Origin: Escherichia phage vB_Eco_QOTSP
Length of the DNA stretch: 64,000 bases
Sequence record: OY720014
Strand: one strand, 5' to 3'
The notes below the pieces were generated by a model. That model had not been told where the DNA came from. It did no database searches and saw only the letters and a program-made list of their open reading frames with translations. Numbering within the stretch: position 1 is the stretch's first letter; each line of letters begins with the position of its first letter. A program made the position numbers and the translations under genes. This document shows, one piece after another, positions 12,037-52,769 of the stretch.

Positions 12037-13455
12037 ATGGCTTTTACAGTTGATATAACTCCTAAAACACCTACTGGAGTTATAGATCAGACTCAGCAGT
12101 TTACTGCTACGCCCAGTGGTCAAACTGGAGATGGACCTATTACATATGCTTGGACTGTTGATGATGTTCCACAAGATGGGGCTGAAGCAACTTTTAGTTA
12201 TGTACTAAAAGGTCCTGCCGGTCAAAAGACTATTAAGGTAGTTGCAACAAATCCAGTTCCTGATACTGAAGCTGAAACAGCAGAAGCTACTACAACTATC
12301 ACAGTTCAAAATAAGACACAGACGACTACCTTAGCCGTAACTCCTGCTAGTCCTGCGGCTGGAGTGATTGGAACAGCTGTTGAATTTACCGCTGCTTTGG
12401 CTTCGCAGCCATTAGGCGCATCTGCTACGTATCAATGGTACGTTGACGGTTCTCCTGTGAGCGAAGCGACTAGCGCTACATTCAATTACACTCCTGACAC
12501 AAGCGGAGTTAAAACAATTAAGTGTGTGGCTCAAGTAACCGCGACAGATTATGACGCAAAAGAAGTTACTTCTAATGAAGTGTCACTGACTGTTAATAAA
12601 AAGACACAGACAACTACTTTGGCAGTAACTCCCGATAGTCCTGCGGCTGGAGTGATTGGAACCCCAGTTCAATTTACTGCTGCCTTAGCTTCTCAACCTG
12701 ATGGAGCATCTGCTACGTATCAGTGGTATGTAGATGATTCACAAGTTGGTGGAGAAACTAACTCTACATTTAGCTATACTCCAACTACAAGTGGAGTAAA
12801 AAGAATTAAATGCGTAGCCCAAGTAACTGCTGAAAATTACAATGAAAAGGAAGTTACTTCGAATGAAGTATCATTAACAGTTAATAAGAAGACAATGAAT
12901 CCACAGGTTACATTGACTCCTCCTTCTATTAACGTTCAACAAGATGCTTCGGCTACATTTACTGCTAATGTCACTGATGCTCCAGAAGAAGCGCAAATTG
13001 CGTATTCATGGAAGAAAGATTCTTCTCCTGTAGAAGGGTCAACTAATGTATATACCGTTGATACCTCATCTATTGGAAGTCAAACTATTGAAGTTACTGC
13101 AACTGTTACTGCTGCTGATTATGATAGCAAAACTATTACGGCGGAAGGTCAAGTTCAGGTAACTGATAAAGTTGCTCCAGAGCCAGAAGGTGAATTACCT
13201 TATGTTCATCCTCTTCCACATCGTACTTCAGCTTACATCTGGTGTGGTTGGTGGGTTATGGATGAAATCCAAAAAATGACCGAAGAAGGTAAAGATTGGA
13301 AAACTGACGATCCAGATAGTAAGTACTACTTGCATCGTTACACTCTCCAGAAGATGATGAAAGACTATCCAGAAGTTGATGTTCAAGAATCACGTAATGG
13401 ATACATCATTCATAAAACTGCTTTAGAAACTGGTATCATCTATACCTATCCATAA
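12037..13455 (+). CDS. hoc: Hoc, highly immunogenic outer capsid protein with an extra Ig-like domain
   Basis: 472 aa; recognisable Hoc N- and C-termini; internal 288-bp tandem repeat. Confidence 0.9.
   Translation: MAFTVDITPKTPTGVIDQTQQFTATPSGQTGDGPITYAWTVDDVPQDGAEATFSYVLKGPAGQKTIKVVATNPVPDTEAETAEATTTITVQNKTQTTTLAVTPASPAAGVIGTAVEFTAALASQPLGASATYQWYVDGSPVSEATSATFNYTPDTSGVKTIKCVAQVTATDYDAKEVTSNEVSLTVNKKTQTTTLAVTPDSPAAGVIGTPVQFTAALASQPDGASATYQWYVDDSQVGGETNSTFSYTPTTSGVKRIKCVAQVTAENYNEKEVTSNEVSLTVNKKTMNPQVTLTPPSINVQQDASATFTANVTDAPEEAQIAYSWKKDSSPVEGSTNVYTVDTSSIGSQTIEVTATVTAADYDSKTITAEGQVQVTDKVAPEPEGELPYVHPLPHRTSAYIWCGWWVMDEIQKMTEEGKDWKTDDPDSKYYLHRYTLQKMMKDYPEVDVQESRNGYIIHKTALETGIIYTYP
12313..12888 (+). 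repeat. in-frame tandem duplication (2 x 288 bp, about 80% identical) encoding two Ig-like Hoc domains
   Basis: Units begin AAGACACAGAC at 12313 and 12601, each ending in the Lys codons preceding the next unit. Confidence 0.85.
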
Positions 13456-42182: not shown

Positions 42183-42740
42183 TTATGGCCTCTCATACAC
42201 GTAGCTTCTCAGTTTATTAGCCCAACGACTCCAATTTCCAACTATAGTTTTAGTATAATTTTTAACGAGAGTTTTTCTTACTAGAGCAGGAGGATCTGTC
42301 GGTTCAGTAGTATCAGAAGATGACCTAGAATTACTACCAGAACCTCCAGATTCACTTTGTTCTTGGTAGTCATATATTAATGTTACTTCGTAAGTGAATG
42401 TCTTCTGGAGATTTTGAGGAGCTTTCCACAAATACAACTGAGTATCAGAATCAGTAGGAAGTTCTTCCCATGAAGCAGCAGTTTTAAATTCATCGCCTAA
42501 ACGATATTTCAACGCGTCATTTCCGAAACCAAATACAGATTCATATGTTCCATATAAGCGATTTTCTTCTACTAAAACCCCAGGAGTTTCTTCGTAACTA
42601 GTTATATTTATAGATACTAACGTTTCACCTGTTTCTAATTGAGCGGTAAAGGTGACGTCGATAGAAGAACCTTCCATGGATTCTCCTAAATCAGCGCTCA
42701 TTGGAAGTATATTAGCCAATGTCAATCCTCGATCCATCAA
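42183..42740 (-). CDS. 5.1: hypothetical protein gp5.1
   Basis: 185 aa ORF between genes 5 and 5.4. Confidence 0.65.
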
Positions 42741-44439
42741 TTGTGTATTGACCAGATGAAATAGAACTCATAGATGCCATTTTTTCTGTCCAATCACCAC
42801 CAACGTCCCAATCAACTGTCCCAGCAACTTTCCAAGAAAGATTTCCATTTACTGTATTAGTCTGATTTCCTTCAACTAAAGTGGTAGCATCTCCTTTAAC
42901 TGTAATGTCAGCATTACCTTCAACTACAATAGTAACATTACCTTTAACTAGGATAGTTCCATTACCTTCAACCGTCTTAGTTTCATCGCCTCTAACAAAT
43001 ATCGTATTGCTTCCATCTATTTGGTGAAGACGATTATCCATGTTGTAATAAATTTCTGATCCACCGACGTTAGTCTTTTTATCACCGGCTACCAAAAAAT
43101 TACCATCAGCATTGGTTATATCATACAAATTATCAACAGTTTTTCTTGTTCTTCTTCCTGACGGTGATACTTCTTCATAAGTTCCAGTTGGATGAACTAA
43201 TCTGTATCGTTCTTGCCCAGGGGTATCATCAAATTCCTGAATATGTCCACTTTCAGTTTCCATTGTATGCACATAAGGATATTCGCCTTTATATGAAGAA
43301 ACTGGTTCTTTGAATAAAATTCTCGAGTCATTTGGAATAGGAGGGTCAGCAGGGTCAGAAGATTTAGCTACAGTCGCAGCCATTGCCGATAAAGACCTAG
43401 CTGGAGTTTTCACTTCAACACCATATGATTCCAAATTCCCCGTAAGAATAATCATGGTAACACGGGATGCACGGCCTTTTGTTTGTTGATACCACAATGA
43501 ATCACGACCGGCTTTATATGCTTTTTCCCAATCTCCTGCTAACATAGCAGTTAACATTGTGTTAAATTTAGCTACACCGCCAACACCCATCTGAAATGCC
43601 ATATTTTCTAATGCCATTTGACGAGAACGGTTGACAGCTTGCCAGACTGGTCCTACTTTAGAATGCGATTTAATGTCACGTTGCATATCAGCCAAATCAC
43701 GCTCAAATAAAGTCGTCGCTTCTTCCATTGTAATAGAACCTGGATTTCCTGTAATTTCACGACCAACTTGTTTTGATAAAACTTTATTAATTTGAGCCAT
43801 ATCACGAACTGGCTGCTTCATGATAAGATGACCAATACCAATTGTCGGATATCCTTCAGTATCCCAATAAACTTTTAGTCTTAATCCTTCATCACGGCGA
43901 AGCATTTCAGCCATTGACATGTTTGGATTATCATCAGTTGGAATCTCTGATAGTGGTCTATCATCGGGATTTATTGCGGTGTCTAAGTTACTATCTTGAA
44001 TAACATTAGAAGAGGAATCATATCCTACTTCTCCGCCTTGGTTTAGTACGTTAGTATCATTTCCTAAACGTCTAGGATATTGCCCAGTTGGGTCAGAAAA
44101 TCCTTCAAGTCTATTCGGTTTTTCGCGAACTATTCCACCATACGTGCCAAGGACAATTCCGTTAGTTTTCCATTTGTCTAAAAAATGACCATAAACTCTA
44201 GTTCCTTCTACCGGTCCAGTAACAGAACCTCCAATTCCTGACATTGCTGCAGAAGTTATAGGTTGAATAACTGACATCCATGGTAATTTTTCAGTTGGAA
44301 TACCCATTACATCACCTTGTGCTCTTTGTGGTGGATGCAGACCAACCACACGAACACGAACACGACCTAATTTTAATGGGTCCATTCTATCTTCAACAAC
44401 ACCAACAAACCAGTTGAGGTTATTACTTATCATTTCCAT
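42712..44439 (-). CDS. 5: baseplate hub / cell-puncturing protein gp5 with lysozyme domain
   Basis: 575 aa; lysozyme segment LRLKVYWDTEGYPTIGIGHLI paralogous to gene e. Confidence 0.95.
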   Translation of the reverse strand: MEMISNNLNWFVGVVEDRMDPLKLGRVRVRVVGLHPPQRAQGDVMGIPTEKLPWMSVIQPITSAAMSGIGGSVTGPVEGTRVYGHFLDKWKTNGIVLGTYGGIVREKPNRLEGFSDPTGQYPRRLGNDTNVLNQGGEVGYDSSSNVIQDSNLDTAINPDDRPLSEIPTDDNPNMSMAEMLRRDEGLRLKVYWDTEGYPTIGIGHLIMKQPVRDMAQINKVLSKQVGREITGNPGSITMEEATTLFERDLADMQRDIKSHSKVGPVWQAVNRSRQMALENMAFQMGVGGVAKFNTMLTAMLAGDWEKAYKAGRDSLWYQQTKGRASRVTMIILTGNLESYGVEVKTPARSLSAMAATVAKSSDPADPPIPNDSRILFKEPVSSYKGEYPYVHTMETESGHIQEFDDTPGQERYRLVHPTGTYEEVSPSGRRTRKTVDNLYDITNADGNFLVAGDKKTNVGGSEIYYNMDNRLHQIDGSNTIFVRGDETKTVEGNGTILVKGNVTIVVEGNADITVKGDATTLVEGNQTNTVNGNLSWKVAGTVDWDVGGDWTEKMASMSSISSGQYTIDGSRIDIG

Positions 44440-47749: not shown

Positions 47750-48446
<697 letters not shown>

Positions 48447-48458
48447 TTTCACAAAGTT

Positions 48459-48488
48459 GTTTACATACTGATGAGGTAGTGATACTAT
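48459..48488 (+). promoter_or_regulatory. T4-type early promoter with stem-loop (PeSL-like cassette), copy 1
   Basis: GTTTACA -35, TACTAT -10 inside 9-bp inverted repeat GATGAGGTA/TACCTCATC. Confidence 0.6.
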
Positions 48489-48519
48489 TACCTCATCAAA
48501 ATTAATTAGGAAAATAAAA

Positions 48520-48777
48520 ATGAAAACTTTCAAAGAGTTTGCTACAGAAACTATTATCACTGAATCTTCTCATGGTATGGAAGTAAAGCTTGGAATGGCT
48601 TTAGCTGAAGCTGAGCGTCTTTTTTCTCGTATTAAAGAACTTGCTGCTGCAGTCGATCCTTCATCTTTTAAAGGAGACCAAACTAAAGTTAAAGCACTTT
48701 TAGCATTATGCTCTGATGCAGGAGAAATCGCTAAGAACGGTTCTAAGATGAAGAAACGATTAGAAGATTTAAAATAA
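48520..48777 (+). CDS. small protein with capsid-targeting-like N-terminus (MKTFKEFATE)
   Basis: 85 aa ORF with RBS, downstream of early promoter cassette. Confidence 0.6.
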   Translation: MKTFKEFATETIITESSHGMEVKLGMALAEAERLFSRIKELAAAVDPSSFKGDQTKVKALLALCSDAGEIAKNGSKMKKRLEDLK

Positions 48778-48789
48778 TTTCACAAAGTT

Positions 48790-48819
48790 GTTTACACGGG
48801 GTTTTAGTAGTGATACTAT
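48790..48819 (+). promoter_or_regulatory. early promoter/stem-loop cassette, copy 2
   Basis: Same 30-bp upstream block (GATTTAAAATAATTTCACAAAGTTGTTTACA) as copy 1. Confidence 0.6.
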
Positions 48820-48855
48820 TACCCTATCAAAACAAATGTGAAATTGGAGAATAAA

Positions 48856-49818: not shown

Positions 49819-50199
49819 ATGAAATTAATTAAATCGGGTGGAACCAGATGGGTACTACTAACACGTAAGTATGCTATTAAGTTCCCTATCCCCAAGACAT
49901 GGAAACACTTCGTGCAGGGTATGCTCAGCAATCTTACAGAAGGTCAGTGGAAGGGGTATGATAACAAGCACCTATGCCCAATAGCATACTCAAACAGATT
50001 TGGTCTCATGGTTGTGATGCACAAAGCAGAGCCAGTTGAGGATAAGGAGCTTTTTAAATCTGATTTGCAAAAGCTCTATAATGATGTTGATGGTGATGAA
50101 TGCAGAACGCTTGACCGTGATTTCTTTGAGTATGATGCCTTTCCAAAGAACTTTGGCTACTACAAAGGTAGATTGGTCAAGATAGACTACGGAGTGTGA
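49819..50199 (+). CDS. hypothetical protein (126 aa) inside repeat-flanked insertion
   Basis: ORF with RBS; Gly-rich loop and AIK motif near N-terminus, KIDYG at C-terminus. Confidence 0.55.
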   Translation: MKLIKSGGTRWVLLTRKYAIKFPIPKTWKHFVQGMLSNLTEGQWKGYDNKHLCPIAYSNRFGLMVVMHKAEPVEDKELFKSDLQKLYNDVDGDECRTLDRDFFEYDAFPKNFGYYKGRLVKIDYGV

Positions 50200-50222
50200 T
50201 AATGATTCTTTATGCAAAAGTA
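50197..50222 (+). repeat. 26-bp direct repeat copy B (TGATAATGATTCTTTATGCAAAAGTA)
   Basis: Matches copy A; includes ATG of next gene. Confidence 0.8.
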
Positions 50223-50492
50223 TCATCCATTGAAAATGGATATAAATATGATCAAGAAGCAGCTAAAGCCTTGATTGATGATTATGGCATTTTAACATGT
50301 TTTGAAGTTGAAAAGGTTTACATTGACCGTTCATCTTCTCAGGTTAAATTAGTAAAAGAAGACCGTAAATTTAATACAGTAAATTTTGATTTCTTTATTG
50401 AAACAGAAAAAGGTCCTCTTGAATATGATATTTTCAAGAATCCTTTGGGTCTTGAATGTATTCAGAAAACGTATATTAATGCAGCGTGGTGA
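50202..50492 (+). CDS. hypothetical protein (96 aa, MILYAKVSS...)
   Basis: ORF starting in repeat copy B. Confidence 0.55.
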   Translation: MILYAKVSSIENGYKYDQEAAKALIDDYGILTCFEVEKVYIDRSSSQVKLVKEDRKFNTVNFDFFIETEKGPLEYDIFKNPLGLECIQKTYINAAW

Positions 50493-50494
50493 AA

Positions 50495-51089
50495 ATGAAT
50501 ATTTGTTTAGGTACTACAATTCCGCAGGGTTACGTAATTGATGTCACTACCTGGGAAAATGATGGTGACAACTATAAAACTAAAACACTGTTTGGCGTAG
50601 AAGAGCATGAAATCTTACAATTCCAATATCTTTTAAAGAAGTTTAAAAGCAGACATTCTAGTACTAAAGCTGAACGTTATTGTGGTAATGGCTTGTTCAG
50701 CGAGCAATCGCTTTTTATTTATGAATACTTGGTTGAAGGACTGTTCTCAGAACAACTTTATCCAGAATTCATTAAAAAGGTAGCAATCGCTTTTTATTTA
50801 TGAATACTTGGTTGAAGGACTGTTCTCAGAACAACTTTATCCAGAATTCATTAAAAAGGTCTTTGACATAGAAGTTGACCTTGGTAATAAATCCGAAGAA
50901 GACGAAGAACGTGTATTTGACTTATTCTTTGTGAATGGTAATAAAGTGCTTGAAGGACTTATTAATATTTTAGGCAGTGCTTCTGAGTATTATGATTATG
51001 ATTTTTTGCGTGTAGTTGAGAGTGTTAAATACTCTTATATAGAAAAAGAAATTGTTTTGCCGACCGTTAAAATGTTTAATTTGCTTTAA
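50495..51089 (+). pseudogene. hypothetical gene split by a 79-bp perfect tandem duplication (fragments 50495..50803 and 50808..51089)
   Basis: Peptide LVEGLFSEQLYPEFIKKV encoded twice; duplication length not a multiple of 3. Confidence 0.7.
50703..50860 (+). repeat. perfect tandem duplication 2 x 79 bp
   Basis: 50703..50781 identical to 50782..50860. Confidence 0.9.
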
Positions 51090-51175: not shown

Positions 51176-51248
51176 TGGGAATTAGCCAAGTTGGTAAGGC
51201 ACTGGATTTTGATTCCAGGATGCAAAGGTTCGAGTCCTTTATTCCCAG
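51176..51248 (+). tRNA. tRNA-Gln (UUG)
   Basis: Cloverleaf: acceptor TGGGAAT/ATTCCCA, anticodon loop TTTTGAT, T-arm AAAGG-TTCGAGT-CCTTT. Confidence 0.85.
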
Positions 51249-51249
51249 C

Positions 51250-51336
51250 GCGAGAATGGTCAAATTGGTAAAGGCACAGCACTTAAAATGCTGCGGAATG
51301 ATTTCCTTGTGGGTTCGAGTCCCACTTCTCGCACCA
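51250..51336 (+). tRNA. tRNA-Leu (UAA), long variable arm, encoded CCA
   Basis: Acceptor GCGAGAA/TTCTCGC, anticodon loop CTTAAAA, T-arm GTGGG-TTCGAGT-CCCAC. Confidence 0.85.
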
Positions 51337-51341
51337 AATTT

Positions 51342-51415
<74 letters not shown>

Positions 51416-51461
51416 ATTTATGACTCGTCGTGAGACGCTCAGTTCTTTATTAGGGACTGAT

Positions 51462-52070
51462 ATGCATTTTTATCTTTATAAAATAACAAATAAAATTAAT
51501 AATAAAATTTATATTGGTGTGCATTCTACCGAAAATTTAGATGATGGATATATGGGTTCTGGTAAATTATTAAAAAGAGCCCAAGATAAATATGGTATAG
51601 AAAATTTTTCTAAAGAAATATTAGAGTATTTTGACGATAAAGAATCTATGCTTGAAGCCGAGAAAAATATTGTCACAGAAGAGTTTTTAAATAGACCAGA
51701 TGTGTATAATTTAAAACTTGGAGGTGAAGGTGGATGGGATCATATAAATAATTATCCTATGACAGATCAGCAACGCGAATTAATTTCATTGGGTGTTAAA
51801 AAGGCGCATTCTAACGGAAAATTAAAAGGATGGTCTTCAAATGGATTAATGAAGAATGGCTTTGCTGGTAAAACTCATTCTCAAGAAGCTAAACGTAAAA
51901 TAGCAAAAGCAAACGAAGCAAAAGTTTCTGCGGATGAAAGAAAAAGAAGAATAGAAATTTCTAAATTATATGATTTTTCTAAACGTGGCGAATTGTCTAA
52001 ATATGCTAAGCATATTGGCGTAAGTCATACTCAAGCAAAAAGAATTCTAAATCAAATTAACAATATATAA
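51462..52070 (+). CDS. segB: GIY-YIG homing endonuclease (SegB-like) inside the tRNA cluster
   Basis: GIY-YIG motif YLYKITNKINNKIYIGVHS; start taken at ATG 51462 (ORF track start 51420 overlaps tRNA-Gly). Confidence 0.8.
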   Translation: MHFYLYKITNKINNKIYIGVHSTENLDDGYMGSGKLLKRAQDKYGIENFSKEILEYFDDKESMLEAEKNIVTEEFLNRPDVYNLKLGGEGGWDHINNYPMTDQQRELISLGVKKAHSNGKLKGWSSNGLMKNGFAGKTHSQEAKRKIAKANEAKVSADERKRRIEISKLYDFSKRGELSKYAKHIGVSHTQAKRILNQINNI

Positions 52071-52076
52071 ATATTT

Positions 52077-52166
52077 GGAGGCGTGGCAGAGTGGTTTAAT
52101 GCACCGGTCTTGAAAACCGGCAGTCGCTCCGGCGACTCATAGGTTCAAATCCTATCGCCTCCGCCA
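52077..52166 (+). tRNA. tRNA-Ser (UGA), long variable arm
   Basis: Acceptor GGAGGCG/CGCCTCC, anticodon loop CTTGAAA, CCA encoded. Confidence 0.85.
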
Positions 52167-52172
52167 GTTTTT

Positions 52173-52248
52173 GCTGATTTAGCTCAGTAGGTAGAGCACC
52201 TCACTTGTAATGAGGACGTCGGCGGTTCGATTCCGTCAATCAGCACCA
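52173..52248 (+). tRNA. tRNA-Thr (UGU)
   Basis: Acceptor GCTGATT/AATCAGC, anticodon loop CTTGTAA, T-arm GGCGG-TTCGATT-CCGTC. Confidence 0.85.
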
Positions 52249-52249
52249 A

Positions 52250-52324
52250 GGCCCTGTAGCTGGAAGGTTCAAGCAAGCGACTCATAATCGCCAGATGGTG
52301 GTTCAATTCCACCCAGGGCCACCA
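52250..52324 (+). tRNA. tRNA-Ile (CAU anticodon; Met-like by sequence)
   Basis: Acceptor GGCCCTG/CAGGGCC, anticodon loop CTCATAA. Confidence 0.8.
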
Positions 52325-52333
52325 AATTAATTT

Positions 52334-52420
52334 GGGGAGTTATCCCGTAGAGGTAGCGGTGTGGACTGTAAATTCATTGTCATTGCGACTCGGGTGGTTC
52401 GACTCCACCACTCCCCACCA
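52334..52420 (+). tRNA. tRNA-Tyr (GUA), long variable arm
   Basis: Acceptor GGGGAGT/ACTCCCC, anticodon loop CTGTAAA, T-arm GGTGG-TTCGACT-CCACC. Confidence 0.75.
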
Positions 52421-52424
52421 ATTT

Positions 52425-52499
52425 GGATGTGTAGCTCAATGGCAGAGCGATCGCCTGTTAAGCGATTGGTTATAGGTTCGAATCCTATCACGTCCGCCA
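52425..52499 (+). tRNA. tRNA-Asn (GUU)
   Basis: Acceptor GGATGTG/CACGTCC, anticodon stem ATCGC/GCGAT, loop CTGTTAA. Confidence 0.8.
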
Positions 52500-52503
52500 A
52501 ATT

Positions 52504-52519
52504 TGTGACAACTGTCACA
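52504..52519. promoter_or_regulatory. perfect TGTGA-N6-TCACA palindrome (CRP-consensus-like) in tRNA cluster spacer
   Basis: TGTGACAACTGTCACA seen directly; function unknown. Confidence 0.3.
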
Positions 52520-52613
52520 TTAATATCTACTTGACGCGATTATAGGGGTTGAACTGATCACTCTTCTCTTAATTTCGTGTGAAGACATCTTGATTGTTGG
52601 AGTAGGTATTAAT

Positions 52614-52689
52614 GTGGCCGTAGTTCAGTTGGTAGAACTCGAGATTGTGATTCTCGTAGTCATGGGTTCGACTCCCATCGGTCACCCCA
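52614..52689 (+). tRNA. tRNA-His (GUG), no encoded G-1
   Basis: Acceptor GTGGCCG/CGGTCAC, anticodon stem CGAGA/TCTCG, loop TTGTGAT. Confidence 0.8.
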
Positions 52690-52693
52690 ATTA

Positions 52694-52769
52694 CGGGGCA
52701 TAGCTCAGAAGGAAGAGCAAGGACCTTCTAAGTCCTAGGTCGTAGGTTCGATCCCTACTGCCTCGACCA
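52694..52769 (+). tRNA. tRNA-Arg (UCU)
   Basis: Acceptor CGGGGCA/TGCCTCG, anticodon stem AGGAC/GTCCT, loop CTTCTAA. Confidence 0.85.

Follow-up and report, generated by a model that had tools for sequence, protein, structure and literature searches.

A perfect 79-bp tandem duplication that splits an accessory gene in the record of Escherichia phage vB_Eco_QOTSP: probably an assembly overlap, possibly a young null allele

Duplications and deletions in T4 mutagenesis usually arise between short direct repeats. The spontaneous frameshifts of this type, as seen in the rII and lysozyme mutant spectra, form between such repeats by Streisinger-type misalignment. T4-type genes are also found interrupted in other ways. 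In the gene 60 bypass of T4 and in programmed frameshifts, a coding gap or a change of frame interrupts an otherwise intact gene. Homing-endonuclease genes split T4-like genes into two adjacent ORFs, as in gene 39/60 and the split nrd genes. A further source of repeats lies in the assembly of the genomes. T4-type genomes are circularly permuted, and short-read de Bruijn assemblers therefore return a 'circular' contig. Permuted genomes yield assemblies that are only seemingly circular (PMC8785237). The ends of a contig, self-circular ones included, share maxK bases in metaSPAdes and MEGAHIT and maxK-1 bases in IDBA_UD (10.1101/2023.05.30.542503). On phage contigs, such end overlaps are a documented artefact that needs to be removed before reorienting (10.64898/2026.07.08.737226).

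In this study, we describe a 79-bp tandem duplication in sequence record OY720014 and compare it with these systems. The window, which is the whole 64-kb stretch of DNA that was analysed, belongs to Tequatrovirus (T4-like) and is 97-98% identical to phages such as AndreasVesalius and slur07 over 22 kb. The duplication and its surroundings consist of the following features.

50202..50492, + strand: trna.2 ortholog, with 93% amino acid identity to T4 trna.2, directly upstream of the disrupted gene
50495..50803, + strand: N-terminal fragment of the disrupted gene, residues 1-96 of a 171-aa protein and six out-of-frame residues (AIAFYL), then TGA (50801-50803)
50699..50722, + strand: terminator-like hairpin AGCGA-GCAA-TCGCT followed by a T-run (TTTTTATTTAT), inside the gene
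50703..50781, + strand: copy 1 of the 79-bp unit, from the second base of codon E70 to the second base of codon V96
50765..50798, + strand: junction made by the duplication, GAATTCATTAAAAAGGT followed directly by AGCAATCGCTTTTTATT, with a single occurrence in the window
50782..50860, + strand: copy 2 of the 79-bp unit, 100% identical to copy 1
50808..51089, + strand: C-terminal fragment of the disrupted gene, residues 79-171 (93 aa), with a TTG start
51176..51249, + strand: tRNA-Gln, the first of a cluster of 10 tRNAs, 86 nt downstream of the disrupted gene

The stretches at 50703-50781 and 50782-50860 do not differ at any base (TRF: a period of 79 with 2.0 copies, 100% matches and a score of 316). 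This is what the sequence-only reading of the window had claimed, and all of its coordinates are right. TRF and end extension give copies that are adjacent, identical and exactly two in number. The copies meet at 50781/50782, where the sequence reads AAAAAGGT on the left and AGCAATCG on the right. Since the repeat extends by 0 bp beyond its endpoints on the left and by 0 bp on the right, the endpoints of the duplication are unambiguous. A chance origin of the repeat is excluded (order of 1e-42 for one offset). No other exact repeat in the 64-kb window is longer than 31 bp.

The duplication appears as a frameshift, since 79 is not divisible by three. The N-terminal fragment starts with ATG at 50495 (GTG at 50486 is an alternative), comprises 102 aa and ends at 50803. 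The C-terminal fragment restarts at 50808, 5 nt past this stop, and TTG is its sole available start. No Shine-Dalgarno sequence is found at a usable distance before TTG 50808. The frameshift and both fragments are thus as first described. LVEGLFSEQLYPEFIKKV is present in each fragment, and 18 residues are common to both, which bears out the sharing of sequence that had been claimed. Deletion of one copy gives a single ORF of 171 codons, in agreement with the earlier figure of about 170 aa. This restored gene is identical at 516 of 516 nt to slur07 CUL02375.1 and likewise at 516 of 516 nt to the Logan contig L016. In the predicted structure of the restored protein, strands 12-35 and 147-156 form a beta-sheet (medium confidence, pLDDT 70), and either fragment would lack part of one domain according to this model.

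The locus shares several properties with the Streisinger-type mutations of T4, namely a head-to-tail duplication in a gene, a shifted frame and an expected ready reversion. In contrast to those mutations, it has no short direct repeats at its endpoints, and 79 bp is far longer than classical slippage. The endpoint contexts are CAGCG/AGCAA on the left and AAGGT/CTTTG on the right, which share 0 bp and hence no microhomology. The ancestral sequence contains no direct repeats spaced by 79 nt besides the duplication itself, and no length variation occurs at the site in 106 phage records or 17 other loci. A slippage-prone site, one of three explanations proposed from the sequence, is not supported by these results, and slippage as the mechanism is rejected for the lack of microhomology. 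The other two, an assembly artefact and a very recent duplication, both stand, with the evidence leaning to the artefact. The left endpoint falls in the stem of the hairpin at 50699-50722. A scan for terminator-like hairpins found two sites in the region versus 0.6 expected, and the significance of the hairpin at the endpoint is doubtful. No way was found in which this hairpin could template a 79-nt duplication. A literature search on the mechanisms of tandem duplication in T4 returned nothing relevant. Since the endpoints lack microhomology, a real duplication would need homology-independent joining. It could have formed by illegitimate recombination of this kind, for example by topoisomerase-mediated or break-and-ligation-mediated joining of sister molecules.

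The locus also resembles the T4-like genes that are split by homing-endonuclease genes. Two adjacent ORFs derive from one gene, and a GIY-YIG endonuclease gene (51420-52070) lies approximately 560 bp away. Unlike in those split genes, nothing is inserted between the two fragments, and no recombination breakpoint coincides with the duplication. Repair associated with the homing endonuclease, that is, with the segB-like gene 560 bp away, was considered as a source of the duplication and is ruled out by the lack of a conversion-tract boundary at the junction, given that the restored gene is 100% identical to its relatives on both sides.

The sequence-only reading had proposed a comparison with related phage genomes, and this comparison shows a single copy throughout. 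A query of 80 nt with the junction at its centre finds matches in 106 phage records, none of which contains the junction. It matches 53 of them as two pieces over one 79-80 nt stretch, which corresponds to a single copy, and in the remaining 53 records only one half of the query is matched. Seventeen further loci carrying the gene were recovered via neighbouring proteins. The junction is present in 0 of the 17, and each has a single copy; when aligned to the window, all of them show a break at 50781/50782, and the two aligned parts overlap by 79 nt in the relative. The 20 loci recovered via neighbouring genes are all mosaic relatives, with none from the same strain. No record of this phage itself turned up in the phage, plasmid or E. 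coli collections, and neither ORF fragment is listed in the gene index. At the level of the whole gene, 572 of 573 phage records hold it in full length. The junction had 0 exact matches in scans of IMG/VR, JGI metagenomes and GTDB genomes, and these negatives carry no weight since the single-copy boundary itself is present in only 0, 1 and 0 contigs, respectively.

The disrupted gene belongs to PHROG 2290, a family of unknown function, with a significant full-length profile match (E=2e-68). No Pfam family matched the gene, and no recognisable fold was found in the PHROG 2290 family. The 573 phage records that contain the PHROG 2290 gene include Klebsiella and Aeromonas phages and the jumbo phage K64-1, and the invariant motif of the family is TTWENDGDNYKTK. 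PHROG 2290 is widespread in T4-like phages, yet uncharacterised. The disrupted gene was also considered as T4 trna.2; this is ruled out, the true ortholog being the upstream ORF at 50202-50492.

The disrupted gene is an accessory ORF that sits between trna.2 and tRNA-Gln. T4 lacks it, and the gap between trna.2 and tRNA-Gln there is 97 bp. The gene is also absent from five loci, which are half of the 10 found through the segB-like gene. A metagenome contig (ENA ERZ27286912 k141_205737, locus L006, 2156-2670) carries the gene with an independent frameshift by a 1-bp deletion, giving 119 + 52 aa. Two other loci (L015 and L017, 3677-4177) carry the same gene with a 15-bp in-frame deletion. These 1-bp and 15-bp indels are elsewhere in the gene, away from the duplication site. 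From its absence in T4 and five loci and from the independent frameshift, the gene is judged to be dispensable, and a real null mutation could therefore survive at this position.

Accordingly, a genuine, very recent spontaneous tandem duplication, which would leave the phage with a null allele of an accessory gene that it can do without, has to be weighed, and we regard it as a possible but not the likelier origin. Such a duplication may have become fixed through drift or through a bottleneck at plaque purification. A real event is supported by the dispensability of the gene, to which the 15-bp deletions add. A disruptive mutation must land where it is tolerated, as here, whereas an artefact may land anywhere. 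The remainder of the window is cleanly assembled, without sign of poor assembly. A survey of the closest relative, covering the 46 CDS annotated in it that correspond to approximately 26.8-64 kb of the window, found this gene to be the only CDS split by a frameshift, and generally poor assembly is ruled out by this count of one in 46. The position in a dispensable gene and the clean assembly also count against an artefact. Zero divergence between the copies and the uniqueness of the duplication suit a very young allele of a gene that is otherwise intact. In fact, identical copies, together with a gene intact in 572 of the 573 records, imply that the allele is young, if it is real. It would also be unstable, as recombination between the 79-bp copies would restore the wild type. 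Against a real duplication, the endpoints lack microhomology and the ancestral sequence lacks 79-nt-spaced direct repeats, the length of 79 coincides with an assembler overlap length, and no second case exists among the 106 records and 17 loci.

The duplication could also be real with the gene still functional, either via recoding (a +1 shift or a gene-60-like bypass) or as a split protein. We consider this extremely improbable. Both frames are open in an 18-nt window (50783-50800), where a +1 shift would produce a fusion of 197 aa in which 26 residues are repeated internally. The TTT_T at 50792 would let tRNA-Phe re-pair in the +1 frame. Termination-reinitiation is conceivable as well, since the TTG of the second fragment follows the stop of the first at a distance of 5 nt. 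However, the arrangement is conserved nowhere, and the ORF is uninterrupted in 572 of the 573 records. The T-run is followed by no stimulatory element, rare codon or stop, and the next codon is the common TAT. For a bypass, the TTA ahead of TGA would be the take-off codon, and no productive landing site exists for it. In addition, the TTG lacks a Shine-Dalgarno sequence, and each fragment is predicted to miss part of one domain. The resemblance to the gene 60 bypass of T4 is that an otherwise intact T4-type gene is interrupted by a coding gap or frame change. In contrast to gene 60, this locus has no conservation, no matched take-off and landing codons and no stimulatory structure, and the interruption is a mere copy of the adjacent coding sequence. 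Recoding and bypass are therefore rejected, a bare TTT_T being all that is present.

A selected, reversible OFF switch of the conserved PHROG 2290 gene, favoured for example because a host defence senses the gene product, is also very unlikely. If it existed, recombination between the copies would turn the gene ON and create phase-variation-like heterogeneity in a lytic phage population.

Instead, the duplication is probably an untrimmed assembler overlap that was internalised by rotation or contig joining, and it is then likely to be absent from the phage DNA. In a circular contig, the first and last k bases (k-1 in some assemblers) would be identical. When such a contig is rotated to a conventional start, or when graph-adjacent contigs are joined, the overlap may be left untrimmed. 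This would create an internal perfect head-to-tail duplication of exactly k at an arbitrary position. The break would have happened to land in a small accessory gene, causing the apparent frameshift. The assembler, its k and the rotation or joining step are parts of this explanation that we infer.

The de Bruijn end overlap of circular contigs, a false 'direct terminal repeat', matches the locus in its perfect two copies, its lack of endpoint homology, its arbitrary position and a type of genome whose assembly is always circular. Two perfect copies with 0-bp endpoint homology are expected for an arbitrary cut of a cycle. The length would fit maxK in MEGAHIT (79) or maxK-1 in IDBA_UD (80), and no relative has the duplication. 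The k-list of MEGAHIT is 21,29,39,59,79,99,119,141, and the series of IDBA_UD proceeds in steps of 20 (10.1101/2023.05.30.542503). Thus, 79 is a member of the default k-list of MEGAHIT and is also the maxk of 80 in IDBA_UD minus 1, where assembler and k would be those presumed for this record. The identity of the restored gene with that of relatives, the presence of the junction in no relative and the intact gene in 572 of the 573 records favour an artefact. The locus differs from the known overlaps in one respect. They are normally at the ends of a record, whereas this one is internal, and an extra rotation or concatenation step would be needed. In most related records, the locus is at approximately 68-74 kb on the minus strand, as in T4, which indicates that rotation after assembly is routine in the genus. 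A point against the artefact is that the most widely used settings end on another k than 79 (55/77/127 in SPAdes, and 141 in MEGAHIT with 150-nt reads).

The relevance of the duplication is chiefly one of data quality. If it is an artefact, the record is 79 bases too long and shows a pseudogene that does not exist, and both errors call for correction before the record is annotated or used in comparisons. For genome scans, a perfect two-copy tandem repeat with the length of an assembler k in a circularly permuted phage should raise the suspicion of an assembly join. If the duplication is real, it amounts to no more than a young null allele in a gene that is dispensable and has no known function, and it shows once more that this accessory gene can be lost. 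Current views would be unchanged, and neither an artefact nor a young null allele would be surprising.

The region around the disrupted gene has other features of the T4-like phages. The tRNA cluster at 51176-52769 contains ten genes, for Gln, Leu, Gly, Ser, Thr, Met/CAT, Tyr, Asn, His and Arg. T4 has eight, and its tRNA-Pro is missing from the cluster here. The annotation of AndreasVesalius gives the tRNA with the CAT anticodon as tRNA-Ile. Between tRNA-Gly and tRNA-Ser, an ORF resembling GIY-YIG/NUMOD3 homing endonucleases is located at 51420-52070 (+ strand). Over its N-terminal 99 residues, it shares 83% identity with T4 SegB, and the remainder differs. Several close relatives lack this ORF, with alignments that jump from 51420 to 52076, and it therefore looks like a mobile insertion. 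Upstream of the disrupted gene, a 126-aa ORF (49819-50199, + strand) is located between the trna.3 and trna.2 orthologs. Many relatives have this ORF, and it has neither a T4 counterpart nor a Pfam family.

Repeats of other kinds are present elsewhere in the window. A cassette of approximately 60 nt is found at 48437-48500 and again at 48768-48830, with 31 nt exact (TTTAAAATAATTTCACAAAGTTGTTTACA...GTGATACTATTACC). The two cassettes resemble an early promoter and flank an ORF of 85 aa that is similar to internal proteins (48520-48777). The number of these early-promoter-like cassettes varies among relatives, which is reminiscent of the gene shuffling mediated by regulatory cassettes in T4-type phages. 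A 472-aa ORF at 12037-13455 (+ strand) has PKD/Ig-like domains and contains a 288-nt repeat at 12301-12894, with 2.1 copies at 77% identity. The ORF probably encodes a Hoc-like protein that decorates the capsid and has Ig domains in tandem. A 24-nt repeat of 4.5 copies (42865-42972) lies in the C-terminal part of the ortholog of the baseplate hub/tail lysozyme gp5 (42715-44439, - strand), and presumably corresponds to the octapeptide repeats of the gp5 beta-helix needle, with which it is consistent.
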